A stretch of DNA of 64,000 nucleotides, from IMG/VR virus record IMGVR_UViG_3300033153_011579, one strand, 5' to 3'. The notes beneath the pieces were generated by a model that saw nothing but the letters and a program-made list of their open reading frames with translations, had not been told where the DNA came from and ran no database searches. This stretch comes from a virus (taxonomy: Duplodnaviria > Heunggongvirae > Uroviricota > Caudoviricetes). Positions 15,165 through 50,419 of the stretch are shown one piece after another (position 1 is the stretch's first letter; the number at the start of each line of letters is the position of its first letter). A program made the position numbers and the translations under genes.

Positions 15165-15528
15165 CGTGTTCCTTCCCGGGCGAGGCTGGCTACTCGTGAA
15201 GCCACCGGAGTCGGAAGCCGACACAGGAGAGGTCTACACTGTCGACGTGATCGAGCTCGCCGCCGAGGAGAAGTCCGCGTGCCCGCAGTTCCAGGAGGAG
15301 ACAGCGATACGCGGTGCTGGCGGCGCTCCGATGATGACCGTGGACATCGTGCTCCCGAAGCGCTGCTACGTCGGTGACCGGTGGAGCGTACTAAAGGACA
15401 GAGACGCAGTGCGCGAGGTACCCGACCTGGACGGTGCCCTGCTCAAGACCGAGGAGGTGATCGGCTGGGAGTGGGAGGACGACCGTCTCAAGCCGCCTCC
15501 TGGCGTCGTAGAGGACCTGGACTCCTGA
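15148..15528 (+). CDS. hypothetical protein (126 aa); weak GroES/gp31-like pattern
   Basis: RBS GGAGGTGA then ATG; GRGWLLVKP...GEVYTV...VGDRWSV loosely recalls the Cpn10 fold. Confidence 0.4.
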   Translation: MFLKNSVFLPGRGWLLVKPPESEADTGEVYTVDVIELAAEEKSACPQFQEETAIRGAGGAPMMTVDIVLPKRCYVGDRWSVLKDRDAVREVPDLDGALLKTEEVIGWEWEDDRLKPPPGVVEDLDS

Positions 15529-22826: not shown

Positions 22827-23472
22827 CTTCGTCCACCTTCGTGAAGGTTGTTGCCCAGACCCACGGGTTGACGGCCCAACCGAGCCCGCGGGAGAAGTTG
22901 ATCTGGTCCCACAGTATCGCAAACCAGGCGCGCGGGCTATCGTAACTCTTCTCCCAGTCTGGTGGACAGCCCTCGGCGAGGGCGTCCTCGTCGGTGATGA
23001 CGTCGACCCGCTCGAGCCGGATCTTCTTTATGTCGAGGTCGAGTCTCGAATAGATCCGCTTCATGAACAGCGAGGTGGTCCATGGCCCATCGAATTCCGG
23101 GTCGGTCGCGCGCCAGTAGACGCCAGCTCCACCACCGATACTCCAGTGATAAAAGCATTCTTTGACCCAGTAGTGGTCGCCCGAATCCATCCTCGAATAG
23201 ATCCGGTGGCTGGTCCCTTCGAGACCCCACTCATCGTCGGGGCCGATATACGGGAGGTGCAGGTACGGGCCGCCGTTCCCGGCTGGCGAAGGTCCGCCGT
23301 CGGCGTGTGCGTTGTCCCAATCCCAGAGCTCTCGAGGCTTGAGGTGTTTGTACCACGGGCCGCCATCGAAGTAGGAGTTGATGTTCGTGACGACTCGGCG
23401 CGTCTGCGTCTTCCTGCCGGCGATGATCTGCCTGACCATCTCGTCCTTGAAGAGTATCGGTCGCTCGATCAT
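22819..23472 (-). CDS. conserved phage protein (217 aa) with N-terminal ASCH-like motif (tentative)
   Basis: MIERPILFKDEMVRQIIAGRKTQTRRVV resembles a widespread phage N-terminal beta-barrel motif. Confidence 0.45.
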   Translation of the reverse strand: MIERPILFKDEMVRQIIAGRKTQTRRVVTNINSYFDGGPWYKHLKPRELWDWDNAHADGGPSPAGNGGPYLHLPYIGPDDEWGLEGTSHRIYSRMDSGDHYWVKECFYHWSIGGGAGVYWRATDPEFDGPWTTSLFMKRIYSRLDLDIKKIRLERVDVITDEDALAEGCPPDWEKSYDSPRAWFAILWDQINFSRGLGWAVNPWVWATTFTKVDEDG

Positions 23473-24215
23473 TTTGGAAAATCCTGAGGCCACGGATACT
23501 GCGGGGCCTGCTTGATGAGATTGTCCTTGACAAACACCGGAATATGATGGTCGAGGCACCAGAGACGGATATTCCAGGCCGTCTCTGCCGGGCATTCGAA
23601 CGCGTGCGGCCCAGTCATAGCACCGATTACTACCCAGCCGAGTCCGTCGAGGATCTTCGGGTTGAAGTTCTTCTCGACGAGCGGCTCGAGGCTGATCCAG
23701 TGGATGCCGGCCCTGGTCTCGGCGAGGTCATAGAGGCGATCGTCGGCCTCCCTGTCGTTCGTGGCGCTGACTCCCAGGTGGAGGTTATCGGGCCAGTCGC
23801 CGACGGCGAAGTTCAGCGGCCGCTTCGTCAGCATCAAAAACGTGTGCTGCGGCAGGGCGGTGATGGATTCGAGTATCTTTCGCTGGAGACCGGTCGTGTT
23901 GATCGCCACTTCCTTGGGATCGCCGGTCACTACCCAGCTCTGTGGAGACTCGACGCAGCAGAGGTCGGACATCGACCCGAGGAAGACGCGCTTCGTTTTT
24001 TTAGAACGCGAGAGTTTTGCGAATTCCCTCTCCCAGACGTCCAGGTGGACGGCGGGTGTGAAGGGGGCTAACCCCCTTTGTTTTAATCTCCAGTAAGCTG
24101 TTCCCTTCTTTCCTCCCAGTCTCGCCGCGAAGCGTCGCGCGTAGCAGTATTTACAACCGTTCGTGCAGCCGGTGAACGGGTTTATCGAAATATCGCACCA
24201 TTCGATCTTCGACAT
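23469..24215 (-). CDS. phage Gp37/Gp68-family (DUF5131-like) protein with a CxxxCxxC motif
   Basis: MSKIEWCDISINPFTGCTNGCKYCYA matches the family N-terminus. Confidence 0.55.
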   Translation of the reverse strand: MSKIEWCDISINPFTGCTNGCKYCYARRFAARLGGKKGTAYWRLKQRGLAPFTPAVHLDVWEREFAKLSRSKKTKRVFLGSMSDLCCVESPQSWVVTGDPKEVAINTTGLQRKILESITALPQHTFLMLTKRPLNFAVGDWPDNLHLGVSATNDREADDRLYDLAETRAGIHWISLEPLVEKNFNPKILDGLGWVVIGAMTGPHAFECPAETAWNIRLWCLDHHIPVFVKDNLIKQAPQYPWPQDFPK

Positions 24216-24217
24216 CG

Positions 24218-24652
24218 CTACAGCCTTTCCACGACGGCCGCCATGAGGTCGATGACGGTGTCTCCGAGGTCGTCGATCTGAGTTTTGATCTTTTTGAATT
24301 TCTTTTTGAACGTGTTCGCCGAATCTTCGATGTAGCCGACCCGCGACTTGAGCCGATCGATTTTCTTCTCGATATTGCGGTCTCGCCTCTTGGAAGTCTC
24401 GTCGGCCCGCATGACCTGCTCTCGAAAATTCTGGTAGGCCGGACAGTCCGCCCAGCACTCCGGGCTCATTTTTTGCGATTGGGCCCGAGCTCTCGCTATG
24501 TCTTCGCCCGTCTTCTGTAGCGCCAGCTCGAGAGCGTGGTACCTCCCGAGCAGTACCGACTGCCACTGGAAGAGGAAGAACGACCGGTTCAGAGGCGGCA
24601 TTTTCTTCCACTCGTCGAGTTGGATCTCGGTCAGGTTGAGTTTGAAATCCAT
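24218..24652 (-). CDS. hypothetical coiled-coil protein (144 aa)
   Basis: ORF. Confidence 0.45.
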   Translation of the reverse strand: MDFKLNLTEIQLDEWKKMPPLNRSFFLFQWQSVLLGRYHALELALQKTGEDIARARAQSQKMSPECWADCPAYQNFREQVMRADETSKRRDRNIEKKIDRLKSRVGYIEDSANTFKKKFKKIKTQIDDLGDTVIDLMAAVVERL

Positions 24653-26062: not shown

Positions 26063-26266
26063 TCAATCCTCCCTCGTATATTTGTCTAAGAGCGCCTGCT
26101 GCTCCTTGGTGAGTTCTTCTCCGATCTGGGTCAGCATGACGACGTGCCAGAACTCGCACATCTCCCGCTGGGCGTCGTCGCACATTATTTGGAACTCGTC
26201 GGTGATCGTCTCGCCTTCTTCGAGCGGCGGCGCTTTGATCTCGACGGTCCAGGTGATCTCAGTCAC
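26063..26266 (-). CDS. hypothetical acidic protein (67 aa)
   Basis: ORF. Confidence 0.4.
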   Translation of the reverse strand: MTEITWTVEIKAPPLEEGETITDEFQIMCDDAQREMCEFWHVVMLTQIGEELTKEQQALLDKYTRED

Positions 26267-27368
26267 GGATCACCTCGACGATCCCTTTGGCAGTTGGTGA
26301 CAAGCTCGCGAGGACCGCATCGGCTCCGGTGACCTCCCTGATGTGCGCCAGGAACTTTGCGTCGTCGTCCATCTTCAAGATCTCGCCGCCGTCGAAGAAC
26401 CGAAAGTCGTCGTTGATGAGGTCGAGGCACGTGACGGCCAGCTCCGGGGTTTTCGTCATGATGTAGTCGTCTTTGTAGATGGCGTAGCTGAGCAGGTCGA
26501 GATCCAGGAGGGTCTTCCTAAATGTTCCCTGGGGGCCGTCGTCCGGGTTCTGCTCGTGTGGATTGTCCTTGATGTTGCAGGGGACGATGTCGCTCATCGG
26601 ACCTTTCCCATGCCGCGTCTGGTAAGCGCGGGTGACGAGCACGATCTCCGGCTCGTATCCCATCTCGCAAATATTTTTCGACCCGGTGTTCGTCGGAGTG
26701 ACGTATGGAAAAAAACCAAAATTCTGGTCGAGCAGCAGGCCTTGCGACCCTTCCCAGATAACCGTTTCGAACGAATCGATGACCTGCTCGTTCGACATCC
26801 CGATGGCCGCGTTGTGTGTCACCTCGTCGCACGCGACGAAGAAATTTTGGATGATGTAGTCGTCCGGTCTGAAGCCGTAGTATTGATAAAACTGCTCCAT
26901 CTTCATCCGCATTATTCTCGGGTGGAACAGGTCTTCGAACAGCAGGTGATGACCCTCCCGCTCTCTTTTGACGGTCGCGAAGATTCCGACCTCACAGCTG
27001 CCGCCGAAATCGGAATTCCGCTTATTCCACTCGATTTCAAACGGCGTGGTGACCGGGCACCTGTGGTCGACGAGGAGTCGTGGGAAGACTTTTTTCACCA
27101 GCAAGACGTCGAGCTCGTTCATGAGGGCGACGGGGTTGACCGAGCAGTATTTCGACCAGAAGGTCGGGACGCCTCGGAACGACCCGCTACCGAAATGAGA
27201 AAATACGTGAGACCTACCGTCCTCGAGCACCACCTGATGCGCGGCCTGGTGGCCGCCCGAGAACCGCACCACGAGCTCGGCCTTGTTGACGTCACAGAGG
27301 TAGTCGACCAGATGTCCTTTCCCCTCGTCCCCAAAGCCGAGCCCGATGACAGCGATGTGCTTGGTCAC
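26259..27368 (-). CDS. purZ?: adenylosuccinate synthetase homolog, PurA/PurZ family (369 aa; GTG start)
   Basis: The motifs [14 protein letters not shown] and [11 protein letters not shown] correspond to the PurA P-loop (GDEGKGK) and GGHNAGH motifs. [24 protein letters not shown] corresponds to PurA [34 protein letters not shown] corresponds to AYSTRVGAGP, and [14 protein letters not shown] to GATTGRRRRTGWLD. Confidence 0.65.
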   Translation of the reverse strand: [369 protein letters not shown]

Positions 27369-32839: not shown

Positions 32840-33718
32840 CTACCTCTTGGCCGGCGACACTACAGGAATCGAGCTCCCCTCGCCCGTGGCGATGACCTTG
32901 TCGCCGGGCCCGACGCGTTTATAAAGCGTCTTCTTGGCTTCGATCTCTCGCAGCGCAAGGTACTTGTCGGTGAGCGCGCCCCCCATGATCTTCACGTAGA
33001 CCGCCTCGGACTCCGCCTCGGCCGTCCTGACCGCCTTCATCTTCTCGGCGACCTTCAGCCGGTTGTCGGCCTGGAGCAGCTCCATCGCCTGCTTCGCCTT
33101 CTCCTCGTCGATCTCGATCTCTCGCCGGCGCTTCTTTTCGACGGCCTTGGTGATGACCTCCGGGTAGTCGAAGTTCGAGGTGACGACGCTCACGAGCTGC
33201 ATCGGCGTCCCCTTCAGCGAGGCGTGCAGCTGCTTGTGAATCTCTTTCTGGATCGCGTCCCGGTTTTCTCTGATCTGCGTCGTCGAGTATTTGCTCACGA
33301 TGCCACGCGCGATCGACCGAGCCTCGGGCTTCACGTACACGTTGTACAAGCTCTCGAACCCGAGTGCCGCCGCGTCGTACTCATCCCATCGCTCCATCTT
33401 CGACCCCTGGCGATTCAGGAGCTCCTTGATCGCAGATCCGTCTGCCGAGACCAGCCGCGTCCTCGTCACCAAATTGAACCTGAAGTTCAGGTCGTCCGAG
33501 CACAGGACGCTCATCTTCTCCTCGATGGCGTCCTCCTTCGTGTCGACCAGCTGCATCGAGTCGCGACCCCAGCACCCGTGGTGACCGGGTTGTAACACCT
33601 CGCCCGTCAGCCCTCCCGGGGTCTGTACCATCCCCACCCAGCCCGCAGGAACTACCTCGTTGCAACCGATGACCAAAAACGCCGCCAGGAACATTCCCAA
33701 AACACATGCTGATTTCAT
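32840..33718 (-). CDS. SPFH/band-7 (prohibitin/HflK-like) domain lipoprotein
   Basis: Lipobox LVIGC; VVTSNFDYPEVITKAVEKKRRREIEIDEEKAKQAMELLQADNRLKVAEK... fits the SPFH core + coiled coil. Confidence 0.55.
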   Translation of the reverse strand: MKSACVLGMFLAAFLVIGCNEVVPAGWVGMVQTPGGLTGEVLQPGHHGCWGRDSMQLVDTKEDAIEEKMSVLCSDDLNFRFNLVTRTRLVSADGSAIKELLNRQGSKMERWDEYDAAALGFESLYNVYVKPEARSIARGIVSKYSTTQIRENRDAIQKEIHKQLHASLKGTPMQLVSVVTSNFDYPEVITKAVEKKRRREIEIDEEKAKQAMELLQADNRLKVAEKMKAVRTAEAESEAVYVKIMGGALTDKYLALREIEAKKTLYKRVGPGDKVIATGEGSSIPVVSPAKR

Positions 33719-34077
33719 TGCCGAGCCTCTCTTTCTTCGGTGGTGAAGTCCACCTTGGAGCCACCGCGAACGCACGCGATGACTTGTTTGAGTTCTGCGA
33801 TCACAAACCGACCGAGACCGATCCTGTCGAGGTCGATGATGAGGGGCGGTGTCGTGTAGCCACGATCGTTGATCCTCACACGGAAGTTAACCCAGTCGCC
33901 GACCTTCACCCTGGTAAACCACCCGCGCACGGCGACCACCTCCCCGCGGAGGGTGTTTGTTTTCTCCGAGAATTTATCTCCGCAGTCGTCGGCGTGGATC
34001 CGCACGATCATCGACTTTCTCGGCATCGACGTGACGATGCCCTTGATGTCCTCCCTCTGAATTTCTCTATCGGCCAT
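33715..34077 (-). CDS. hypothetical protein (120 aa, possibly OB-fold-like)
   Basis: ORF; ATGA overlap. Confidence 0.45.
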   Translation of the reverse strand: MADREIQREDIKGIVTSMPRKSMIVRIHADDCGDKFSEKTNTLRGEVVAVRGWFTRVKVGDWVNFRVRINDRGYTTPPLIIDLDRIGLGRFVIAELKQVIACVRGGSKVDFTTEEREARQ

Positions 34078-37780: not shown

Positions 37781-38246
37781 TTTGGCATCGCCGCGTCAGG
37801 GTGCTCTGGCCGATCTTCTCTCCACTGGAGAGTTACTCCCGATGGTCCTGGTCGCCCTCGGCCTGGCGATCGTCATCACGTGCACCAGGGCCGGCTACCC
37901 GCTCCGCTTCCTGTGGTGCATGCTCTTCAACTTCCGCTTCACCAGGTGGCTCTGGAACCTCGTGCTCTGCCCTCACTGCTGCTCGTTCTGGACCGGCTTC
38001 GCCGTTGGGTATGCGGTCACGGGTGACTGGATAAAAACCATACAGATCGCCGTCACGGCGTGCGGCGTCATGTACGTGCTCCAGAAGACTTTCTCACGAG
38101 ACCGCATTGTCGCCGCCGACCGTGTCCACGGCGACAGGTGGGTCTTGGATGTTCGCGGCGTAGCGTTTGAACCCCCTGAGGATTTCGAAGAGATCCTCGG
38201 TATAAAAAACGGTTTGAAGGAGACTCCAGATGACGAAGATGGGTAA
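37773..38246 (+). CDS. integral membrane protein (157 aa)
   Basis: Multiple hydrophobic helices. Confidence 0.5.
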   Translation: MINLASPRQGALADLLSTGELLPMVLVALGLAIVITCTRAGYPLRFLWCMLFNFRFTRWLWNLVLCPHCCSFWTGFAVGYAVTGDWIKTIQIAVTACGVMYVLQKTFSRDRIVAADRVHGDRWVLDVRGVAFEPPEDFEEILGIKNGLKETPDDEDG

Positions 38247-40275
38247 ACAACTCGGGGAAGCACTCGAAAAGAGCTTCGACAGAACCATCAGGGATTTCAG
38301 AACCGAGAGCCGGTCCACCGGCACCACGGGCCTCGATGCGCTCGAGCAGCTCGGGAGGGAGTTCGAAACCGTCAGCGTCAACATACATAGGAAAAACGAG
38401 CACGGTAAGTACACCCTGTTCTCTCCACTCGAGGGCGTGGCCGTCGCCGACCTCCTGCAGCAGGGGTACGACGTCTTTTGCAAGAACGAGGGCGGCGAGG
38501 GCGACTACAAGGTGGAGGTTGTCATCCCGGCGAAGGAGCCGGGGAAGCCACCCGTCCGTCGCTGGGAGGGGCCGTTCATCGTGAGCGGCACGCCGCGGCT
38601 CGAGGTCTCCAAGACCGAGATGTCCAAGCAACAGAACAGTTTCGGATTTCCGTTCAACATGATGAGCGGCCTCCCCGCGAACACCGCCGCCGCCGGCAAC
38701 CAGGGAGGAGCTCCCTACGTCCGCGACCTGCTCCAGCAGATGAACAAGTCCTCCGAGAGCCAGAACAACATGGTGCAGCAGATGATGGGCCTCATGATGA
38801 TGAAGGACATGATGCCCGGCGCGGACCAGAAGAAGAACGGCGAGACCGACGCCAATAACCCGGCCGTGCTCGCGCTCCAGACCCAGGTCAGCGAGGTGAC
38901 CCGACGGCTCGACGACGAGCGCCGACGGTCGGAGGACGACCGCCGATCTCGAGATCAGGAAAAGCGTATCGAGGCCGCCGAGCGACGCGCCGAGGAGAAC
39001 CACCGAGAGGTACTCCGCCTGCTCGACAACAACAAGACCACCGAGACCATCGAGCTCATGAAGCTCCAGCGCGACGGCCAGGGCTCCAAGGACGACTCGT
39101 TCCTCAAGCTGATGGCCATGAACCGTGAGGATTCCAACCAGTCCCAGGCGCGGTTCGACGGGCTCATGATGAAGCTGTTCGACAAGCCAGACGGCGTCGA
39201 CCAGAGCTCGAAGGTCATGGGCATGATGATGGAGTCGTCCGTCGCCCAGCTCAACATGATGACCCAGATCGCCGCGAGCGGTCTCGCCGGAGGTTCCGAA
39301 AACCCGTGGATCGACCTCGTCCGCGAAGGGGTCGGCACGGTCAAGGAAGGTTTCAAGGGCGTCCTCGCCATGAAGTACGGCATCGACATGGACGGCGACG
39401 ACGAGGACGGCGAAGATGGCGAAGAGGCCCCGGCCCCCCTCACCCAGCACGTCCCGCCGGCGAAGATCGAAGCGCGGACCGACCCGGAGACCGGAGAGGC
39501 GGTACCGGAAGAAGCACAGACCACCGTCGACCAGCCGGCTCCAGAAGAAGACACCGAGGACGAAATCCCGCAGAGCGCGCTCGACGACGCCGACGAGCTC
39601 AAAAAATACATCCTCACCGACGACGAGCTCACGGGGCTCGCGCAAAACCGGCAGACGCAAAAAATCCTCAAGGCCGTCGAGGAGAAGGACTATCCGCAGG
39701 CCACCGCCCGGATCTTCGAGCGCGTCCGTGGCAAGTCGCCCGTCCACAAGCGCTGGCTCAAAGCCCCCGGCCCGCTCACCGCGCAGATCCTCACGCACTT
39801 CGGGCTCACGCACCACATGTTCGCGATGACCCAGAACCTGATCGACTTCATCGGCCATATGAACGGCGGTGGAAATCCGAACGACTGGTCCGAGAACTAC
39901 AAGCCGGTCAAGGAAAAGAAGGAGAGCAAGATGAAACCCGACAACCCCGCAGCCACCGAGCTGGGCGTGACCATGGGCGAGCGCAAGGAAGGCGAGGACT
40001 ACGACGCGTCGAAGGTTCCCGACGATCCCAAGCTGGCCGAGCTGGCCGAGCAGCAGCGAGCTCTGCGCGAAGAGAAGAACGTGCTCGACCAGATGGAGCA
40101 GATCGAAGAGAACATCGGGTTGCTCAAGGAAGGGAAGATCGACCCGCAGCGCGCGGCGTTCCTGCGCACGGAGAAGAAGCTCCCGGCGTCCGGAGAAGAG
40201 GACGAGGCGCTCAAGGAGATCGCAAAGCTGCGGCACGACATAAAGAAGCAGCAGGCCGAGGAGGGGAGGGCTTAA
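38230..40275 (+). CDS. large low-complexity coiled-coil protein (681 aa; Q/M/E/K-rich) - candidate scaffolding or assembly protein
   Basis: Strong GC3 bias. Overlapping alternative-frame and antisense ORFs (39306-40511 +, 38068-40236 -) were rejected as artefacts. Confidence 0.5.
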   Translation: MTKMGKQLGEALEKSFDRTIRDFRTESRSTGTTGLDALEQLGREFETVSVNIHRKNEHGKYTLFSPLEGVAVADLLQQGYDVFCKNEGGEGDYKVEVVIPAKEPGKPPVRRWEGPFIVSGTPRLEVSKTEMSKQQNSFGFPFNMMSGLPANTAAAGNQGGAPYVRDLLQQMNKSSESQNNMVQQMMGLMMMKDMMPGADQKKNGETDANNPAVLALQTQVSEVTRRLDDERRRSEDDRRSRDQEKRIEAAERRAEENHREVLRLLDNNKTTETIELMKLQRDGQGSKDDSFLKLMAMNREDSNQSQARFDGLMMKLFDKPDGVDQSSKVMGMMMESSVAQLNMMTQIAASGLAGGSENPWIDLVREGVGTVKEGFKGVLAMKYGIDMDGDDEDGEDGEEAPAPLTQHVPPAKIEARTDPETGEAVPEEAQTTVDQPAPEEDTEDEIPQSALDDADELKKYILTDDELTGLAQNRQTQKILKAVEEKDYPQATARIFERVRGKSPVHKRWLKAPGPLTAQILTHFGLTHHMFAMTQNLIDFIGHMNGGGNPNDWSENYKPVKEKKESKMKPDNPAATELGVTMGERKEGEDYDASKVPDDPKLAELAEQQRALREEKNVLDQMEQIEENIGLLKEGKIDPQRAAFLRTEKKLPASGEEDEALKEIAKLRHDIKKQQAEEGRA

Positions 40276-40511
40276 TGGTCAACCACCAGGACCTGATGAA
40301 GCAGGCCGAGGCCATCTTCATCTTCTTCGAGCGAGAGGTGGAAAAATACGAGCGCGACCAGGGCGCACAGATGCTGACCGACAAGCCCACCAGAGAGGTG
40401 TGTCGGAAGACGCTGGTCGCCGCCGGGAACTACATCGCGAGAGCTATCGACGACCTCACCAAGATCGACGAGCACGAAGAGCTGCAGAAGAAGCAGCATC
40501 AGGAAGGGTAA
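40275..40511 (+). CDS. hypothetical protein (78 aa)
   Basis: TAATG overlap. Confidence 0.45.
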   Translation: MVNHQDLMKQAEAIFIFFEREVEKYERDQGAQMLTDKPTREVCRKTLVAAGNYIARAIDDLTKIDEHEELQKKQHQEG

Positions 40512-40512
40512 A

Positions 40513-40872
40513 ATGAAAGTCATCATCCACCCGCTTGGCGAGCGCGTACTCGTCGAGCCGTTCGACCTCGAAGGGGCGACCGCCGCCGGCGTCATCATCC
40601 CGCTCTCCAAGGGCTCCCACAAGCTCGGGAAGATAGTCGCCGTCGGCGACGACCTCGAGCCGTTGTGTGAAGAGACCGAAGCGGAGAGCGAGCTCGACGA
40701 CGACGAGGAGCTCGACCCCGTGAGCTCTTGGGGCCCCCCCCCTGTCGCGGTCGGCGACAGCATCATCTACAACCGCTTCCTCCCGCTCATCCTCCCCACC
40801 GATGATTCGAAAATCGAGAAGCACATGGTTGCGCTCGAGGACATCCAGGGCCGGGTCGAGATCGAAAAGTGA
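40513..40872 (+). CDS. GroES/Cpn10-like co-chaperonin (119 aa, with insertion)
   Basis: MKVIIHPLGERVLVEP...TAAGVIIPLS...GKIVAVGDD...VGDSIIYNRF...HMVALEDIQGRVE follows the Cpn10 beta-barrel pattern and mobile loop. Confidence 0.6.
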   Translation: MKVIIHPLGERVLVEPFDLEGATAAGVIIPLSKGSHKLGKIVAVGDDLEPLCEETEAESELDDDEELDPVSSWGPPPVAVGDSIIYNRFLPLILPTDDSKIEKHMVALEDIQGRVEIEK

Positions 40873-40874
40873 AC

Positions 40875-41207
40875 ATGTTCGAAAAACCGGTGGTCGTCGG
40901 GCCGCTGAGAGAGGAAGAGAAAATGTCAGCAGATAGAACCATCGACGCGGGGAAGGCGCGAGAGGCTGCCAAGGAGATCGGGGGACTCTTCTACGAGACC
41001 AAGGTGCAGACCAAGAAGCAGGCACGTGAGGTCGCACTCAGGATGGCCGATATGCCGATCGACTGGCACGGTATCATCGAGATCGTCGAGGACGGCCTCT
41101 TCGTGCACCACGGCTCACTCGAGACGGTAAAGTTGCTCCAGATTGCCGAGGGTGCCTGGACCGACCAGACGCTGGCCCTCACGTTTGTCGGCAAGCTGTT
41201 CGACTGA
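40875..41207 (+). CDS. hypothetical protein (110 aa)
   Basis: ORF. Confidence 0.5.
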   Translation: MFEKPVVVGPLREEEKMSADRTIDAGKAREAAKEIGGLFYETKVQTKKQAREVALRMADMPIDWHGIIEIVEDGLFVHHGSLETVKLLQIAEGAWTDQTLALTFVGKLFD

Positions 41208-41348
41208 TCCTCAGCGAAAAACACCAATTCACGAAAAAAAAGAAGTCGTCCCAACACCCTGATAATCATGGGCAAACTCCTTAACAAGCCCATGTGTGCA
41301 AAAAAACACACTTGACTACAATGTGAGATATAGATTACACCAACACAC
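41208..41348 (+). promoter_or_regulatory. A/T-rich intergenic region with TTGACT...TATAGAT promoter-like hexamers and palindrome GTGTGCAAAAAAACACAC
   Basis: Shares TGTGTGCAA with the 36.2-kb control region. Confidence 0.4.
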
Positions 41349-41951
41349 ATGAACCCAGAGGTGCATCGTGGGGTCACGAGCATCAAGCAACGACTCGACC
41401 TGATAGCACAAAGGATCGATGTCAGCGTTCGTAGACCCCAGAAATCCTTAGACGGACGGCAGTTCATGCTCAAGGATTTCACTCACTTCATCGTTCGCGG
41501 TACCCCACAACACGGCCCAGCATCAGAAGAAGAGCCCATCAACGCGGTGTTCAGCTACGTGAAAAACAACATCGAGTACCGCCAGGATCCGACGGGCTAC
41601 GACTACTACATGGGTGCCGGGCGCATCATCAACTCCAAGGCCGGCGACTGCGACGACCTCACCATCATCATCTGCGCGATGCTCGACAGCATCGGCTACC
41701 GCACTGGAGCTCGGGTGATCTCTCCCGACGGGCACCAGTGGCACATCTACTCGCTCGCCGGGGTCGACCCTGCGTTCAACGGGGAGCCCTCGAGAGTCGT
41801 ACCGCTCGACGCTGCCTACGGTGACGAGCCCGGCTGGGAGCCGTCGAACAGATTTCGAAAGTACGAGCAGCAATGCACCTTCTTTAAGGGCAAGGTCGTT
41901 GGCTACAAGGTCGTCCGGGACGGCGGGTCCTGGTTCAATTTTTTCAGGTAG
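41349..41951 (+). CDS. transglutaminase-like (papain-fold Cys protease) domain protein
   Basis: AGDCDDLTIIICAMLDSIGYRTGARVIS...GHQWHIYS...D shows a Cys-His-Asp arrangement typical of transglutaminase-like domains. Confidence 0.5.
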   Translation: MNPEVHRGVTSIKQRLDLIAQRIDVSVRRPQKSLDGRQFMLKDFTHFIVRGTPQHGPASEEEPINAVFSYVKNNIEYRQDPTGYDYYMGAGRIINSKAGDCDDLTIIICAMLDSIGYRTGARVISPDGHQWHIYSLAGVDPAFNGEPSRVVPLDAAYGDEPGWEPSNRFRKYEQQCTFFKGKVVGYKVVRDGGSWFNFFR

Positions 41952-41961
41952 GAGGGTACCA

Positions 41962-42927
41962 ATGGCCGTCAGGAATCCCAGTCTCGCCGCGCAGAACATG
42001 CCGCCCGAGTTTCGTTTCAAACCGACCAAAATCTATTACGACAAGCCGCCACGGAACACCGTCTACGAGGACGCCCTGGGGTCCGGTGGGAAAGCCCCGA
42101 TCGACCCGCGCCTCCAGCGGCTGCTCGACCCGATCACCTGGAAGTCCGACCGCTCGCCGGTCGCCAACATGCAGCAGAGCGCGCACGGCGTGATCTCGAA
42201 ACTCATCCACGAACACAAGCACTCGCAGACCCCCCGCACCATCATCCGCAAGAACGTCCCGAAGATAACGATCAACACGAGGCACGAAGAGCAGCCCGGA
42301 GCTCGCCAGCCGCTCATGCGCGGCAACCGCACCCCGCAGCAGGTGGCGCGCGGTGTGAAGACCACGCACAGGCCCGTCAGGCCGGGTCCGGACATCAACA
42401 AGATCAACGCCATCCTCGACCCACGGCGTGGCTTCAAGCCCGGGTCGGCCGAGGCGTACCGCAACCTCCTGATGCAGGCCACCCCGGAGTCGGTCGAGCA
42501 GATCGCCGCGAAGGCGGAGCGCGCTGCAGAAAAGCGCGAGGAGCCCACGACGTCCATCGGCAGTCACCAGTTCACCGACGCGGAGCTCCAGGCGGCCCCC
42601 CCCGGTCTGATCAAGGTGATGGTCGACCGCGAACTTCAACGACGCACCAAGAAGAACAAGCCGCGCGTGATGTTCGACCCGAGAGAATCTCGCGGTCTGT
42701 CGACACACGGGCAGTACACCACCATCCCGCGACCTGGTCTCGTCGAGTTCGAGCCCGGGAAGTTCATGCGGCCCGAGCAGCTCGGCATGACGGCAAACGA
42801 AGCGGTGGTCGCGATGGATTCCAACGGTCAGCCGAAGCCGAAGGTCGGCGGCGGGTCGATCCTCCTCGGCCTCGGTGCCGCGGCTCTCGCGATCCTCGGC
42901 CTCTCGATGGTAGTGGGTGGGAGATAG
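41962..42927 (+). CDS. hypothetical protein with C-terminal TM anchor (321 aa)
   Basis: ORF; C-terminal GGGSILLGLGAAALAILGLSMVVGG. Confidence 0.5.
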   Translation: MAVRNPSLAAQNMPPEFRFKPTKIYYDKPPRNTVYEDALGSGGKAPIDPRLQRLLDPITWKSDRSPVANMQQSAHGVISKLIHEHKHSQTPRTIIRKNVPKITINTRHEEQPGARQPLMRGNRTPQQVARGVKTTHRPVRPGPDINKINAILDPRRGFKPGSAEAYRNLLMQATPESVEQIAAKAERAAEKREEPTTSIGSHQFTDAELQAAPPGLIKVMVDRELQRRTKKNKPRVMFDPRESRGLSTHGQYTTIPRPGLVEFEPGKFMRPEQLGMTANEAVVAMDSNGQPKPKVGGGSILLGLGAAALAILGLSMVVGGR

Positions 42928-42928
42928 C

Positions 42929-43279
42929 GTGGGCGACGTCATCACACTGGACGGCCTCGACTCCACGACACTCTCCGGCACGAAGTGCGGGAAGCTCGTG
43001 TCGATCAACGCTCCGATGCTCGGGCAGAGCGTCCAGGTGTGCGAAACTGACGTCAGCCGCATGGCAGGCCTCGCGGGCGTCAAGCGCCGTCCTGGCCGCC
43101 CCAAGAACACCACCGTCAAGAACGGAGCGCGCAAGCCCCGGTTCAAGGGCTGCGGCTCTACCAAGGTAGTGAAGACCAAAAAAGGGAAGAAGATCTGTAA
43201 GTGTGCAGATCGTGGAAACGGGCAGATCCTGCCCCATAAATCCTGTGGGTTGGGAAAGCCCACGAAAAGGAGTCGATGA
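42929..43279 (+). CDS. basic AT-hook-containing protein (117 aa; GTG start)
   Basis: KRRPGRPKN AT-hook core plus Lys/Arg-rich, Cys-containing tail. Confidence 0.45.
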   Translation: MGDVITLDGLDSTTLSGTKCGKLVSINAPMLGQSVQVCETDVSRMAGLAGVKRRPGRPKNTTVKNGARKPRFKGCGSTKVVKTKKGKKICKCADRGNGQILPHKSCGLGKPTKRSR

Positions 43280-43398
43280 TGGCCAGACGGAAGAAGAAGA
43301 AGGGTATCCGCACTGCTTCGGGTCGCTGCCGGTTCGGCAAGGTCAAGAAGGGCCGCCGGAAGGGCGCTTGCCTCAAGTCCAAGCGCGCCCGCAAGTAG
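43276..43398 (+). CDS. ultrabasic mini-protein (40 aa; MMARRKKKKGIRTASGRCRFGKVKKGRRKGACLKSKRARK)
   Basis: ATGA overlap; >50% K/R. Confidence 0.35.
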   Translation: MMARRKKKKGIRTASGRCRFGKVKKGRRKGACLKSKRARK

Positions 43399-43471
43399 CC
43401 TTCGCCTGCTCTTTTAGCGGGCGGAACACACCGCAGCAGGCGAGTGATCCGCCCTGCGGAAGGAGGAGAAC

Positions 43472-43582
43472 ATGAAGAAGGGTACGTGCAAGCAGAACAA
43501 GAACAAACGCGGAGCCAAATGGGTCTGCCGGTCGAAGAAAACCGGCAGGGTCAAATTCTCCAAAACAAAGCTCTACAAGTGA
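43472..43582 (+). CDS. ultrabasic mini-protein (36 aa; MKKGTCKQNKNKRGAKWVCRSKKTGRVKFSKTKLYK)
   Basis: RBS GGAGGAG then ATG. Confidence 0.35.
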   Translation: MKKGTCKQNKNKRGAKWVCRSKKTGRVKFSKTKLYK

Positions 43583-43590
43583 GCTCAACG

Positions 43591-44154
43591 ATGACGGGGT
43601 TTCCCGTCGAGGAGGACCAGAAGATGCGAAAGCGCAGCGATGACGCGGTCTCCGGCAGGGGACCACAGGACGACCAGTTCGTGGAAAAAAACGACGACAC
43701 CGACGTTGGTGCCTACACCATCGAGCCTCTGGCGGGAGTAATGGGCCTCGGGGCCAAAGACTTCCTTCCGCCCGCGGCCGGTGGCCTCGGCTACTTCGTC
43801 GCAACGTGGCTGGTGAACCGCTTCGGCGGGAACATCTCCGGCTACCTGACCCGGTTCGCTCCTCTCGTGGGCGGAGTGCTCGGGGCCTTGCTCAACGGCG
43901 TGGCCTTGCCCTTCGTCGCCAAGGGAAACGGGAAGAAGATGGTGGCGCAAGCCGCCGCCACTTCGCTGACCATGGGGATCATGTCCCAGATCCTCCGCGA
44001 GACCTCTGGCCTCGGAGCAGTCGTCATCGACCGGATCGCAGGAGCCGGTCCGATGGGTGCGCTCCCCGGCCCGACAGTCCACGGCGCAGGGACGATGCCC
44101 AGGCAGATCCGACAGACACTCGACAAGAGCGTCTATGGAAACTCGTGGGGCTAG
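43591..44154 (+). CDS. hydrophobic Gly-rich protein (187 aa)
   Basis: ORF. Confidence 0.45.
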   Translation: MTGFPVEEDQKMRKRSDDAVSGRGPQDDQFVEKNDDTDVGAYTIEPLAGVMGLGAKDFLPPAAGGLGYFVATWLVNRFGGNISGYLTRFAPLVGGVLGALLNGVALPFVAKGNGKKMVAQAAATSLTMGIMSQILRETSGLGAVVIDRIAGAGPMGALPGPTVHGAGTMPRQIRQTLDKSVYGNSWG

Positions 44155-44218
44155 GCCCCGCAAAACCCGTTAGGTCGATCGCTGAAAAGCACGCCTGACA
44201 CAGAGGAGAAAACAAGCC

Positions 44219-44929
44219 ATGGCCGTCAACACAATCGAATTGCCTTCGGGCGAGATCTTCACCATCGCCGATTGGGGCGATTTCCCGCTGTACTCGCGCG
44301 CCCAGATCGCTCCCGGCAACGCGCAGGACGTGATTGTTTTCAATTACGTCGAAGCCCAGCCGATCCCGGGCGGCGGTGTCGCCGCGGCGCTGTCAACGCT
44401 GATTGACAGCAATCTCGAGCAGGACTCCGCACTGCCCATCGACGAGCAGATGATCGTCTTCTCCGTCCAGATCCGTTTCGACGAAGCGGACTCGGATGCA
44501 GCCGGCCTGGTGACGCAGGCGGACAGCGGTGCAGAGGGCATGATCAAGTGGCTCAACATCACGCACAACACGTATTTCGAGCTGACGGTGACGAGCCAGA
44601 AGCCTCGGGTACAGGGCGTGATCACCGAGTTCCCGATCGGTGGTGGGTTGTACTGGCAGCAGTCCCGTGACACCGGCGCGACCGTGGCCGGCTACACGCC
44701 GACGCCGATGCCGTACGACAACAACGTGGCCTACGAGGTCATCAACGGGTTCCCGACCGCCGAAGCGGCTCGCCGCCTCGCGCTGCCGGTCCACATCCCG
44801 ACGATGCAGACCTTCAAGGGCCGCTTCCGGTGGCCGCGTGGTGCGCTGCCCGCCGGCGGTATCAGCCCGGTGACGGACTTCGGTCTGACCGTGTTCCTCT
44901 ACGGACCGCGTCAGCGCCAGGTCGACTAG
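44219..44929 (+). CDS. putative virion structural protein (236 aa)
   Basis: Position in the morphogenesis block; strong GC3 bias. Confidence 0.5.
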   Translation: MAVNTIELPSGEIFTIADWGDFPLYSRAQIAPGNAQDVIVFNYVEAQPIPGGGVAAALSTLIDSNLEQDSALPIDEQMIVFSVQIRFDEADSDAAGLVTQADSGAEGMIKWLNITHNTYFELTVTSQKPRVQGVITEFPIGGGLYWQQSRDTGATVAGYTPTPMPYDNNVAYEVINGFPTAEAARRLALPVHIPTMQTFKGRFRWPRGALPAGGISPVTDFGLTVFLYGPRQRQVD

Positions 44930-45008
44930 CCGAGCGATCCTACCTATTCACCACTCCCCGAGCCGACCGGCTCGGGGAGTTCCGAGGTGGTAGGATCAGG
45001 AGGCTGGT

Positions 45009-45911
45009 ATGACGGAAAAATTCTTCTCCCCGCGCTGGTTGCACCAGTCCGTAGAGATCGGTGCCACCAGCCACCGGCCAGTTCCCTCGGCGTTCTTCGC
45101 GAACAACGAGGTTTGGAATTGGCATCTGGTGTATCTCGCGATCGTCGGCACTGCCGCGCTCGACGAGGCGGGGAACTACTCGCACGCGCTGGGCGGCGTG
45201 GCCAGGCGCTTGCGCCTGAATATCGGCATGTCGCAGATGGGCGACATCAACGTCGTGCCGTCCAACGGTCACGCGATGTTCGGTCCTAACGAGTCGTACC
45301 TCGTGCACTCGAACGACTTGAACATCGGCGCGGCCCTGCGGTTCGACCCGAAGTATCCTTACCAGCTTCCTCCCGACACGGGCATCGCCGCGCGCGTCAG
45401 GAACGACAACCTGACCTACAACATCGACAACCTCGGCTGTTTGTTCATGGGGTTCGACGAGCCGGCAGGGTTCGGCGAAGGCCCGCGCAACCCGGTCCAC
45501 ATCGGAGCTCGCGCGATCGAGGAGCTGCAGCCCGGCGGCGACTTCACGTTCGACGACGCCGATTTGTTCAACGACGGAGAGCACCCGGCGACCTTGACCG
45601 ACATGGTTTTACAAGGGTTCGCTCTCAATGAGCAGAATGTTTCGAACAACACATGGGACCAGGTCTCCTGGCTCCTGAACCCGAGCACCGGGCCCGAGTG
45701 GATGCCGAACGACCAGCCGATCCCGGTCGGCTGCCTCTGCCCGTTCAACCGCGGCATCCTCGACGCTAACGACGTCGGACCTCGAGCGTACGTCTTCCCG
45801 GAAGAGACGATCATGAAGCCGCGCCAGCGGATCTCGATCGAAGCGTTCAACTACTCGGCGTCGGAGCAGATCTTCGAAGTCTGCCTGTTCGGATATTTGG
45901 AGGTGGCATGA
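45009..45911 (+). CDS. putative virion structural protein (300 aa)
   Basis: Position in the morphogenesis block; strong GC3 bias. Confidence 0.5.
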   Translation: MTEKFFSPRWLHQSVEIGATSHRPVPSAFFANNEVWNWHLVYLAIVGTAALDEAGNYSHALGGVARRLRLNIGMSQMGDINVVPSNGHAMFGPNESYLVHSNDLNIGAALRFDPKYPYQLPPDTGIAARVRNDNLTYNIDNLGCLFMGFDEPAGFGEGPRNPVHIGARAIEELQPGGDFTFDDADLFNDGEHPATLTDMVLQGFALNEQNVSNNTWDQVSWLLNPSTGPEWMPNDQPIPVGCLCPFNRGILDANDVGPRAYVFPEETIMKPRQRISIEAFNYSASEQIFEVCLFGYLEVA

Positions 45912-46738
45912 TGAAGAACTACCTCCCGTTCGCAGTGCGCGAAATCCGGACGTCCGCAGGGGTCAACTGGGCCGGCGGCATCCCGCCGACGCAGAGCGCG
46001 GTCCAGGTCGTCTCGCTCGACGTGGGTTTTGGCGAGAAGGTGATCTTGCAAGACCTGAACGTCTACGCCTACACCGGCGGCGAGGCCGAGCCGTCGACCC
46101 AGCTGCTGATGCGCGTCGGCTACCTCGGCAAGGGATACCTCACCGAGCGCCGGCTGCCCGCCGGACTGTTCATCAACAAGTCCCGCCCGGCGGTACCGGT
46201 CTGGGAGTTCATCAGGCCGTACATCCTCTACCCGAACCAGCAGCTGCGAGCTCGGGTGGCGACGGCCCGGAACGTCTTCGGGAGCCAGGGCCTGATGTTC
46301 AGCGGCGTGAGGCTCAAGGACAACCGTCCTTGCATGCTGTACGACACGACGGAGAACGTGATCGCCGCCGGCGGTGGCGCGGGGTTCGTCGATACCAGCT
46401 TGCGCTGCCCGGGAGACTCCCCGGTCGCGTTGCACTCGGTGTCGATCGCCGACTGGGACTTCACGAAGACCGCCAACACCTCGGTGGTGCAGATCTGGAG
46501 CCCGCACGGTAGGGAGTGGTTCCAGGTGTCGCCGTTCGCCGGGCCGCCCCCGGCAGCCGACCAGAAGTGGATCGACCCCCCCGTCGACATGCTGTCGCTC
46601 GAGGAGTTCCGCGGCTGGAGCATCGGATCAGGCCAGACGTTCCTGGTCGAGTTCGAAAACACCGGACCCGACAACTTCAACGTCATGGTGACCTTACGGG
46701 GCTCCGTGGAGGTCGATGAGGAGGACCGTCATGGTTGA
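45908..46738 (+). CDS. putative virion structural protein (276 aa)
   Basis: ATGA overlap. Confidence 0.5.
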   Translation: MMKNYLPFAVREIRTSAGVNWAGGIPPTQSAVQVVSLDVGFGEKVILQDLNVYAYTGGEAEPSTQLLMRVGYLGKGYLTERRLPAGLFINKSRPAVPVWEFIRPYILYPNQQLRARVATARNVFGSQGLMFSGVRLKDNRPCMLYDTTENVIAAGGGAGFVDTSLRCPGDSPVALHSVSIADWDFTKTANTSVVQIWSPHGREWFQVSPFAGPPPAADQKWIDPPVDMLSLEEFRGWSIGSGQTFLVEFENTGPDNFNVMVTLRGSVEVDEEDRHG

Positions 46739-47660
46739 TCTCGCACAGAGTGAGATGTACAAGACCATCCCCCTCGGCGACGACGTCGCGCGGGAGTTCC
46801 CCTGGTGGCGCGAGGGTCAGACCACCTTCGCGACCGGCGTCGCGTACCGCGAGCAGCGGTTTGTGTTCGGGCCGAACAGCGCGCCCTTGCGCTCCGACCG
46901 CGAGATCCCGATCGACATCACCGAGATCCGGATGATCCTCGATACGACCACCGAGCGCGAGCAGGCGGGAGAGCAGAACACGACGGTTCAGATTTTTCAC
47001 TCGAAGTACGACATCATCAACAGATGGCAGCCGGTGCTGAGCGTCAACACCCTGTGTAACCGGGGGTTCGGTGGCGATACCGCGTCCGCCATGTTCAAGC
47101 TGCCCGCTCCGTACTTCCTGCAGCGCGGCCAGGCGTTCAAGATGGAGCTCGTCCCGCTGACGGCGACCATGGCGAACAGGACGATCGACGTCTGCCTACG
47201 AGGCTGGGACCCGTTCAACAAGTTCCCATGCGTCATGTCCAAGCAGATCGCCCTGGGCGCGGCCAACGCCAAGGTCGACCTCGTGTTCGACGAGAACCGT
47301 GACGCCGCCATGCGCAGCATGTGGATCCGGGACATCACGTTCGGGTTCAGCGAGGTGAACGCCGCGGCAGCGCCGAGGTCGATCACCGACCATATCCGCG
47401 TGCGGTTCCATCCGGGGATGGGCCCGAAGTGGACCGACGATATGACGATTGGCACGAGGTTGTCAGGCCTCGTGCACGACGACAGCTACGTCTCGGCGGT
47501 CGGAGCATATCGGCCGACCACGAGGTTCGTTCCCAAAGCTCCAATCGTCCTGCGGCCCCGAGAGGTGTTGACGATCAAGGTGAGGAACGAGGTGGCCATC
47601 GCCTCCGGGCCTCACACCTGGTACTGCTGGGTGATCGGTACGCAGAAGGGAAGGTACTAG
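46716..47660 (+). CDS. putative virion structural protein (314 aa)
   Basis: Overlaps the previous gene. Confidence 0.5.
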   Translation: MRRTVMVDLAQSEMYKTIPLGDDVAREFPWWREGQTTFATGVAYREQRFVFGPNSAPLRSDREIPIDITEIRMILDTTTEREQAGEQNTTVQIFHSKYDIINRWQPVLSVNTLCNRGFGGDTASAMFKLPAPYFLQRGQAFKMELVPLTATMANRTIDVCLRGWDPFNKFPCVMSKQIALGAANAKVDLVFDENRDAAMRSMWIRDITFGFSEVNAAAAPRSITDHIRVRFHPGMGPKWTDDMTIGTRLSGLVHDDSYVSAVGAYRPTTRFVPKAPIVLRPREVLTIKVRNEVAIASGPHTWYCWVIGTQKGRY

Positions 47661-49047: not shown

Positions 49048-49364
49048 CGAGCAAGCAAAAGATCATCGCGGGAGTCGCCGCGGGAGCCGCCGCCGCCCTG
49101 ATCACCGGTCTCGTCATCTGGCGCTCCCGGAAGAGGCTCGCGCTCGCCGCTCTTAAATACGAAGTCGATCCTTTATATAAGGCCCCCGCCGGCCTCAAGA
49201 CGCTGAAGCTCAGGAGCGTGCCGAAAGCCGCGGTGGTGGCCGTTAGAAAAATACACGGCAAGTTCAAGCTGCACCAGGCGTTCAGGGACACCGACGCCAT
49301 GTACTTGGTAGAAATCCACGAGGGGTTCGACCCGCTCGTGTTTCGAGTGAGGAGAAAGACATGA
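49044..49364 (+). CDS. membrane-anchored small protein (106 aa)
   Basis: N-terminal TM segment IIAGVAAGAAAALITGLVIW. Confidence 0.45.
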   Translation: MTSKQKIIAGVAAGAAAALITGLVIWRSRKRLALAALKYEVDPLYKAPAGLKTLKLRSVPKAAVVAVRKIHGKFKLHQAFRDTDAMYLVEIHEGFDPLVFRVRRKT

Positions 49365-50419
49365 GAGGCAATCCCTACGATTGGATCAACCAGACTCGCG
49401 AGCACAAGGTGTTCGGAACTCGGCACTACCCGCTGATCGCCGGGCTCGCTGGGAAGTCCAACGGCTACCCGGCGTTCGCCATGCAGGTCCAGAGCCTGCC
49501 TGGTCTGCAGCGCAACCAGTACATCCGCGAGTGGCGGCAGTGGTTCGGGCGGCACGGCAAGAGCTGGGAGAAGATGGGCTGCCTCAAGGAAAACCGTCTC
49601 GGCCAGTACACCGACCGCTACAGGTGGACCGAGTGGAAGCCGGGCCTCGGTGCCTTCGGGTCGTTCGATACGAGCGTCGGGATGGGCTGGACCGCGATGG
49701 GGAACCCCGGCGCGAACTTCATCCCCAAGACGAACGTCATCCCGATCCCGGGGTACCCCGGCTGGGTACGCCAGATCGGCATGCTGAAGTACGACAAGGT
49801 CGGCGACGCGTGGCCCTGGTGTCTCGTGTACGCCAAGACCGACGGCTCGCAGTACGTCTGGTACTACAAGTACTCGGCGTCTCAGCCTCCGTTCCCCGGA
49901 GTCCCGCAGCCGACCGGCGGTGGCGACGACATCGGCACCGCGATCCCGAGCTCGACGAAGGCCGCGGTCACCGCGCTCCAGAAGGCGCTCAACCTCGCCG
50001 ACGCCAGGGACTCGCACAACAGGAAGCTGAACGAGGACGGCAACATCGGGCCCGACACGTGCTACGCGGCGTACCAGTTCAAGTCGGAGATGGGGCTCGG
50101 TACCGGAGCTGGGCTGCCCGCGGAGTTCTGGCTCTACCTCGGCCTGCCCGAGTCGTACGTCAAGTACAAGAACATCTGCTCGGCCTACTCGAGTGGAACG
50201 GAACCGAAAAAAACGACCAAACAACCGGGGCCGCTACCGGAGGAAGAGACTCCCGACCCGACGGTCAAGGCGGGCGACGCACCGCTCTCGATCTCGAAGG
50301 CGGGCCTCGGTGGCAAGAAGATGCTCCTGCTCGGCGGGGCCCTCCTGTTCGGGGGGCTCGTCGTGCTCGGTCGTAAGAAGAAGAAGCGCGGAAAACGCTC
50401 CAAGAAGAGGAGAAAATAA
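49361..50419 (+). CDS. peptidoglycan-binding-domain protein with C-terminal TM anchor and poly-basic tail (352 aa)
   Basis: VTALQKALN...DGNIGPDTCYAAYQFKSEMGL fits the PG_binding_1 pattern; C-terminal LLLGGALLFGGLVVLGRKKKKRGKRSKKRRK. Confidence 0.5.
   Translation: MRGNPYDWINQTREHKVFGTRHYPLIAGLAGKSNGYPAFAMQVQSLPGLQRNQYIREWRQWFGRHGKSWEKMGCLKENRLGQYTDRYRWTEWKPGLGAFGSFDTSVGMGWTAMGNPGANFIPKTNVIPIPGYPGWVRQIGMLKYDKVGDAWPWCLVYAKTDGSQYVWYYKYSASQPPFPGVPQPTGGGDDIGTAIPSSTKAAVTALQKALNLADARDSHNRKLNEDGNIGPDTCYAAYQFKSEMGLGTGAGLPAEFWLYLGLPESYVKYKNICSAYSSGTEPKKTTKQPGPLPEEETPDPTVKAGDAPLSISKAGLGGKKMLLLGGALLFGGLVVLGRKKKKRGKRSKKRRK

Follow-up and report, generated by a model that had tools for sequence, protein, structure and literature searches.

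In Escherichia coli GroES, the mobile loop comprises residues 17–34 and includes I25-V26-L27, the roof hairpin comprises residues 44–58, and a hole of approximately 5 Å lies at the centre of the dome (PMC5653362). The GroEL-contacting motif is G24-I25-V26-L27, a glycine followed by three hydrophobic residues (PMC5649160, PMC5653362). In gp31 of phage T4, the mobile loop has 22 residues as compared with 16 and the roof loops are absent, which results in a larger cage (PMC6318259). Marine et al. (2017) described 1479 full-length viral GroES sequences and, in viromes, 976 contigs carrying GroES only (PMC5649160). Viral genomes of this GroES-only type are common and are believed to rely on the GroEL of the host; in 53.6% of the GroES-only contigs, GroES adjoins a 'kinesin-like' protein without the motor region, which is followed by a head protein (PMC5649160). 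Deletions of the roof hairpin were found in several viral GroES clusters and are the only roof variants reported (PMC5649160). Here, we describe a Cpn10/GroES-family gene of an uncultured tailed phage, IMGVR_UViG_3300033153_011579, of which a stretch of 64,000 nucleotides (nt) was analysed as a whole (hereafter, the window). A preliminary description, made from the bare sequence, had taken the gene for a gp31-type co-chaperonin at the head of a morphogenesis block. From sequence comparison and structure prediction, we consider it probable that the gene encodes a functional, virus-adapted GroES co-chaperonin, a heptameric lid that would dock on host GroEL to help fold phage proteins.

Identity and predicted structure of the Cpn10 protein

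The open reading frame (ORF) and its putative translation signal are located as follows.

40513–40872, plus strand: Cpn10/GroES-family gene, 119 amino acids (aa), ATG to TGA (ORF and translation)
40501–40508, plus strand: Shine-Dalgarno-like AGGAAGGG, 4 nt 5′ of the Cpn10 ATG (direct sequence reading)

The 119-aa translation contains all of the motifs named in the preliminary description, namely IHPLGERVLVEP, TAAGVIIP, GKIVAVGD, and GDSIIYNRF, together with a long acidic stretch. The protein has a net charge of −16 and a pI of 4.3. The GC contents at the three codon positions (0.68/0.35/0.87) are coding-like and in line with those of the neighbouring genes. An identical protein is encoded on contigs of two Joint Genome Institute (JGI) metagenome samples (L001 and L002; L numbers denote related loci), and thus the acidic insertion is not an assembly artefact; sibling proteins occur in other studies.

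The search with a Cpn10 hidden Markov model (HMM) that had been proposed gave a score above the Pfam gathering score (PF00166, 31.6 bits versus 21.1, E=1.7e-7, residues 5–46), and the database entry of the protein carries the precomputed tag PF00166. The protein also matched PHROG 3188, 'co-chaperonin GroES' (E=2e-6), and its NCBIfam matches, 12 of 12, were GroES models with scores of 18–31 bits. A word-indexed homologue search with the single protein returned itself alone, and relatives were found neither in IMG/VR nor, by tblastn, in deposited phages. An exhaustive phmmer search of 1.84 billion representative proteins yielded 11 matches at E<1e-3, three of which form a small clade with the window protein. 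They are P0002 (103 aa, 56% identical to the window protein over its full length and with the same type of acidic insertion), P0003 (96 aa, available as a protein sequence without a locus), and P0004 (94 aa). An additional member is encoded at L013:2411-2719, and the clade counts approximately six known sequences among the 1.84 billion proteins; sequence patterns of the clade retrieved no relatives among metagenome contigs or GTDB genomes.

A profile of four clade proteins (A1) aligned over positions 1–98 with residues 1–96 of E. coli GroES (E=3.8e-5), and against the Protein Data Bank (PDB) it matched residues 1–93 of 8wuc_a at E=1.7e-8 and Cpn20 at E=1.3e-9. The clade ORF is intact in every copy, in the window lineage (L001/L002), L013, L004 (P0002), L003 (P0004), and P0003; the proteins are 34–54% identical and retain invariant core motifs, with conservation concentrated in the N-terminal strand, the glycine with three hydrophobic residues, and the VGD and Y motifs. 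In L003:116-738, two Cpn10 genes lie in tandem, one encoding an A-type protein of 94 aa with a roof of normal length and the other a more canonical B-type protein of 113 aa with the mobile loop motif G-V-Q-Y (polar second position) and a 24-residue roof. This pair suggests two specialised lids or mixed heptamers.

Structure prediction with AlphaFold2 from an 18-sequence alignment (A3) gave, as a monomer model, the β-barrel fold of a GroES subunit, with a mean predicted local distance difference test (pLDDT) score of 73.6 and a predicted template modelling score of 0.63. The β-core was predicted confidently, with block mean pLDDT of 84–92, and low confidence was confined to residues 21–30 in the mobile loop (pLDDT 55) and residues 51–73 in the insertion, where residues 51–59 and 66–73 fell below 50. 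In Foldseek searches of the PDB, ranks 1–31 were all Cpn10, GroES, Cpn11, or gp31 chains with probabilities of 0.99–1.00, and the TM-score against bacterial GroES, normalised to the target, was approximately 0.6. All named matches among the top 50 in BFVD were viral co-chaperonin GroES or Cpn10. The 'GroES-like' domain of ADH-type enzymes was considered and rejected: such structures appeared from rank 32 only and scored weakly, and the window protein consists of one free-standing domain of 119 aa.

The mobile loop and the roof were delimited in alignment A8, which contains E. coli GroES (identical to 1aon_O) and the clade proteins, and in which the N-terminal strand I-H-P-L-G-E-R-V aligns with I-R-P-L-H-D-R-V of GroES.

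40567–40617, plus strand: mobile-loop equivalent, residues 19–35, corresponding to E. coli GroES 17–34 and one residue shorter (alignment A8; low pLDDT)
40588–40599, plus strand: G26-V27-I28-I29, the equivalent of GroES G24-I25-V26-L27 (alignment A8)
40645–40743, plus strand: expanded putative roof hairpin, residues 45–77, 33 residues versus 15 in GroES 44–58 (alignment A8 and residue counts)

The docking motif is G-V-I-I, G-V-I-V, or G-L-V-L in every A-type member of the clade. The 33-residue segment at the position of the GroES roof is acidic and predicted to be disordered; the 32 residues that follow G45, between AVG and VAVGD, include 14 Asp/Glu and no Lys/Arg. The length of this segment differs among the clade members, being 13 residues in P0004, 17 in P0003, 23–24 in L013 and P0002, and 32 in the window protein. 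Compared with L013 and L004, the window gene contains one additional block of 24 nt, and its roof-coding DNA contains two copies of a perfect 9-bp direct repeat, GAGCTCGAC, 18 nt apart; the roof loop thus grows by small in-frame insertions and deletions. A small additional insertion relative to bacterial GroES is present near the C-terminus.

Taken together, the HMM, profile, and fold comparisons support the core of the preliminary description, a phage-encoded GroES-like co-chaperonin, and indicate that the 119-aa ORF is a real, very divergent member of the Cpn10/GroES family, with a resemblance far beyond chance. A second, weaker Cpn10-like pattern had been noted in ORF 15148–15528. The ORF exists, but it carries no Cpn10 signal and was rejected: it had no Cpn10 match in Pfam or PHROGs even at E≤10 and no matches to two Cpn10 HMMs with all filters off, and the hhalign probability was 0.6%.

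Genomic slot and probable function

The Cpn10 gene lies in a compact group of genes on the plus strand.

38230–40275, plus strand: 681-aa gene, with a stop codon that overlaps the following start codon (TAATG); homologues upstream of the anchor in L009–L015
40275–40511, plus strand: 78-aa ORF (JGI gene call); found by blastp in the window, L001, and L002 only
40875–41207, plus strand: downstream gene of 110–112 aa, starting 0–2 nt after the Cpn10 stop; homologues in L003, L013, and L014
41208–41348, no strand assigned: AT-rich intergenic region that closes the 681/78/Cpn10/112 unit (direct sequence reading)
41349–41951, plus strand: transglutaminase-like gene (Pfam Transglut_core), used as the anchor; downstream edge of the variable slot

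The order given in the preliminary description, with Cpn10 after the 681-aa ORF, holds, but the two are not immediate neighbours, as the 78-aa ORF, which had not been mentioned, lies between them and ends one base 5′ of the Cpn10 ATG. Neither the 78-aa nor the 112-aa gene matched Cpn10 HMMs with the filters off, and both were rejected as a second, degenerate Cpn10 of the kind found in L003. The copy of the 112-aa gene at L002:6646-7037 is split over two reading frames relative to the window and L001, by a frameshift or an assembly error. The intergenic region 41208–41348, in a genome with 59.5% GC, contains a promoter-like TTGACT...ATTACA and a GTGTG-A7-CACAC palindrome just 5′ of the transglutaminase-like gene; a consensus promoter scan did not report this element.

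The anchor protein had 91 homologues at E<1e-10, many of them on contigs of 60–82 kb, and none in IMG/VR when used as the query. One homologue-bearing contig (GCA_054869085.1) was binned in a Planctomycetota metagenome-assembled genome, which is the only taxonomic hint. Synteny around the anchor is kept in L003 and L009–L015. We compared the slot between a conserved gene of approximately 650 aa and the anchor by gene calls, blastp, and filter-free HMMs, with the following contents (percentages, identity of the anchor to that of the window).

Window, L001, and L002: 78-aa gene, Cpn10, 112-aa gene
L013 (78%): Cpn10, 105-aa gene
L003 (72%): Cpn10-A, Cpn10-B (the more canonical of the two), then genes of 117 aa and 127 aa (the latter Cys-rich)
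L004 (fragment): Cpn10 after the end of the ~650-aa gene
L009 (67%): no Cpn10; other cargo of approximately 5 kb that includes an IS240-type transposase
L014 (63%): 82-aa gene, 124-aa gene; no Cpn10
L015 (60%): 66-aa gene only
L010 (56%), L011 (47%), and L012 (43%): empty

Because only the closest relatives of the window carry Cpn10 in this slot, the gene is regarded as a lineage-restricted accessory gene and not as part of the conserved core. The slot appears to be an insertion hotspot, since that of L009 holds approximately 5 kb of different cargo. The 112-aa gene and Cpn10 are not strictly linked, as L014 carries a homologue of the former without the latter. In the Planctomycetota-binned relative, the cargo at L009:3900-9000 contains a DDE_Tnp_IS240-type transposase and an Lcl_C-domain protein.

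In the reading we favour, the β-barrel Cpn10 subunits would assemble as a heptameric lid, whose flexible mobile loops would bring G26-V27-I28-I29 into contact with the apical domains of an ATP-bound GroEL ring of the host. The folding chamber would then be shut by the lid, with the phage co-chaperonin adding to or displacing that of the host during infection, and one or more presumed phage substrates would be folded with its help. The largely disordered acidic roof would contribute a charge of approximately −14 per subunit, or approximately −98 per heptamer if one is formed, so that the apex of the dome would differ in charge and geometry. Cpn10 is probably transcribed together with the conserved 681-aa gene and coupled to it in translation. 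No Cpn60_TCP1 match was found by Pfam and NCBIfam in the window ORFs of at least 400 aa, and no Cpn60 was present among the precomputed Pfam calls of the contigs and flanks, the DNA covered in all being approximately 80 kb of the genome; the Cpn10 gene is not in a groES-groEL operon. The partner would therefore be the GroEL of the host, as no GroEL gene is present in the window and flanks examined.

Several observations weigh against this reading. The NCBIfam GroES scores were far under the equivalog cut-offs of 96–215 (best score 31.4 bits, cut-off 136), so that the protein is to be regarded as a family member and not as a cellular GroES orthologue. The single-sequence matches to Pfam, PHROG, and NCBIfam span residues ~2–52 only; the concern that homology is limited to the N-terminal half was removed by the clade profile, which aligns end to end with solved GroES chains. 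A single-sequence AlphaFold model was uninformative (pLDDT 41), and alignment A3 contained canonical GroES sequences, so that the alignment-based model corroborates the homology and is not independent of it. The relatives that lack Cpn10 in the slot show that the gene is dispensable for the lineage, although these relatives were covered over ±10 kb or less around the anchor and may carry a copy elsewhere in their genomes.

Among the alternatives, the protein might bind GroEL as a modulator instead of acting as a productive co-chaperonin, with the acidic roof plugging or altering the cage so as to inhibit, re-route, or divert host GroEL. The conserved docking motif would fit this role, and the 32 residues of the roof are predicted to be disordered, are highly acidic, and vary widely in length among siblings (13, 17, 23–24, and 32); the gene is also accessory, as are many host-takeover genes. 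Nevertheless, we consider this role unlikely. The 13-residue roof of P0004, the shortest in the clade, resembles that of ordinary GroES, which suggests that the ancestral state of the clade was a normal lid; moreover, blockade of GroEL would probably hurt the folding of phage proteins too, and no precedent was found in the literature searched.

Still less probable is a role of the Cpn10 fold that does not involve chaperonin, as an assembly factor, a virion-associated protein, or an acidic partner of the small basic proteins encoded downstream. The shared operon with the conserved 681-aa protein would fit such a role, as would the contrast between the highly basic ORFs 42917–43279 and 43279–43398 and the acidic Cpn10 protein. 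Conservation, however, sits in the GroES-defining elements, a pattern that would be expected only under selection for GroEL docking and for the heptamer fold, and all structural neighbours in the PDB and BFVD are co-chaperonins. That these elements are conserved at 34–54% identity weakens this alternative, and equally the view that the gene is a passenger. The latter, a recently captured or decaying host groES without an adaptive role, is very improbable: the gene is accessory and sits in a hypervariable slot that holds an insertion sequence-type transposase in one relative and lacks Cpn10 in most relatives examined, but an identity of 24–28% to cellular GroES together with scores far under the NCBIfam equivalog cut-offs argues against recent capture, and all copies are intact, with invariant core motifs and a codon composition that matches the phage.

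Returning to the functional lid, the roof may have a more specific meaning. The progressive and increasingly acidic expansion of the roof could be an adaptation that re-tools the GroEL cage in the direction opposite to that taken by gp31, a proposal that we regard as unlikely. If so, the heptameric crown of approximately 98 negative charges might tune the chamber for particular phage clients. Candidates would be the unusually basic products of genes located slightly further downstream, or capsid-like proteins among the unrecognisable structural genes of the lineage, and the tandem A/B pair of L003 could form mixed lids. If true, such re-tooling would be a new structural route to a chaperonin specialised for a virus.

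Neighbouring genes and the phage lineage

The placement of Cpn10 at the head of a morphogenesis block and the description of the 681-aa protein as a scaffold could not be confirmed, as none of the neighbours had a match to a capsid, portal, scaffold, terminase, or tail family. Approximately 40 neighbouring ORFs had no structural-protein family in PHROGs, Pfam, or NCBIfam, and the 681-aa protein had no family or PDB match. The 352-, 605-, and 681-aa proteins gave no tblastn match in phages, and searches of PDB sequences with the family profiles A5, A6, A7, and A9 did not identify the neighbours as structural proteins.

Downstream of the anchor, two conserved proteins of approximately 300 aa, encoded on the plus strand at 45009–45911 and 46716–47660, share an 'RxxP..GP.W' motif (hhalign 55%, E=1e-4, 238 columns). 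From this alignment they look like distant paralogues, and they might be capsid-type proteins. In a 352-aa family encoded at 49361–50419 (plus strand), a peptidoglycan-binding-like motif is combined with a hydrophobic segment at the C-terminus and a poly-Lys tail; with its transmembrane segment and basic tail, the family looks like peptidoglycan-binding proteins and not like capsid proteins, although its PDB-profile match was weak. The small ORFs at 42917–43279 and 43279–43398 (plus strand) encode extremely basic proteins, for example MMARRKKKKGIRTASGRCRFGKVKKGRRKGACLKSKRARK. The presence of membrane-anchored and very basic proteins in a conserved block is unusual for a structural module of a tailed phage.

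Elsewhere in the element, 30 PHROG families were matched among the 72 other ORFs, several at E<1e-40 and including a phage sigma factor and phrog_1211, which identifies the element as a phage. DUF5131 (Gp37/Gp68), an SLT lysozyme, and a weak integrase match are also present; no tRNA genes were found in the element. The region 38000–45900 had no DNA-level match in phages, and by these comparisons the phage is very distant from cultured phages. It belongs to an uncultured family (36466–64000, L005, L006, and L009–L015) of approximately 70–82 kb, with contigs of 81271, 82351, 79612, 74630, 72509, 71840, and 70722 nt. Searches with Pfam, PHROGs, NCBIfam, and PDB profiles recognised no terminase, portal, capsid, or tail protein in this family.

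A 369-aa PurA-like adenylosuccinate synthetase is encoded at 26259–27368 (minus strand) and retains the GDEGKG motif. It matched Pfam Adenylsucc_synt (E=1e-39, profile positions 1–274 of 416) and phrog_1211 ('2-aminooxy adenylosuccinate synthetase', E=1e-51), which we read as a PurZ-type family; in NCBIfam it scored 110 bits with purA and 38.7 bits with PurZ, both under the cut-offs. The gene may indicate a 2-aminoadenine (Z-base) genome or be merely a phage PurA, and no DatZ or MazZ was recognised among its neighbours. Regulatory and modification genes of the window, all on the minus strand, encode a response-regulator receiver-domain protein (17597–18598), an SPFH/Band 7 protein (32840–33775), and a DUF5131 protein with a weak radical-SAM match (23469–24611). 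In the flanks, a sigma-70 family factor lies just upstream of the window (L006:3433-4107), and two sulfotransferases and a methyltransferase lie just downstream (L005:8172-11409). Receiver-domain, SPFH, DUF5131, sigma-70, sulfotransferase, and methyltransferase genes are unusual for a phage of such size.

Comparison with known co-chaperonins

Phage co-chaperonins show how viruses tailor a universal folding machine of the host to their own proteins. In the present lineage, gains and losses of the lid gene have taken place at one defined variable slot, in a genome of ~70–82 kb and a family with no recognised structural gene. The gene suggests a GroEL-dependent, infection-limiting step in the host and is useful as a marker of the phage sub-lineage. 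If the acidic roof is functional, it would widen the range of ways in which the GroEL cage can be tuned; otherwise, the protein is one more viral GroES.

With bacterial GroES (1AON chain O), the window protein shares the I-x-P-L-x-x-R-V strand, the G-[VIL]3 loop, the VGD...Y motif, and the β-barrel, and it differs in its identity of 24–28%, its shorter mobile loop, its 33-residue roof, and the lack of a groES-groEL operon.

With T4 gp31 (1G31) and RB49 CocO, it shares the fold class and its presumed role as a phage-encoded lid for host GroEL. The changes in the window protein are the opposite of those in gp31, its mobile loop being slightly shorter and its roof larger, and 'GroES-like' is therefore right, whereas 'gp31-type' is wrong. 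In the structural search, 1g31_A ranked 29th (E=7.7e-3, 14% identity), behind 28 GroES/Cpn10 chains with 17–27% identity, and gp31 was absent from the sequence-level PDB matches of both the window protein and the clade profile.

Annotated GroES proteins of jumbo or large cultured phages (e.g., Yersinia phage fHe-Yen9-04, Serratia phage BF, Vibrio phage D82, and Burkholderia phage BcepSaruman) were among the structural matches in BFVD. The GroES proteins of cultured phages are 30–47% identical to E. coli GroES and detectable by tblastn, whereas the window protein is not, and the window genome has no detectable DNA or structural-protein similarity to these GroES-bearing phages. The view that such genes are rare outside T4-like phages and a few jumbo phages holds for cultured phages, of which 100 of 50,697 records, mostly of jumbo phages, matched E. 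coli GroES by tblastn; it does not hold for viromes, given the 976 GroES-only contigs (PMC5649160).

The closest counterparts are the viral GroES-only co-chaperonins, which provided the best structural matches in BFVD ('Co-chaperonin GroES [uncultured virus]') and to which PHROG 3188 belongs. They share with the window protein a single Cpn10 domain, the absence of a nearby GroEL gene, the loop motif, and low identity to cellular GroES, and in both cases GroES adjoins a large non-enzymatic protein, a likeness of position. They differ in that the window protein has no sequence match in deposited phages or IMG/VR and that its roof is expanded and acidic, not deleted. Viral co-chaperonins as such are a well-populated known kind, with a PHROG family and dozens of entries in BFVD. 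The novel aspects are the strong divergence of the present clade, the uncharacterised phage family that carries it, the gain and loss of the gene at a defined slot, and the large, acidic roof.

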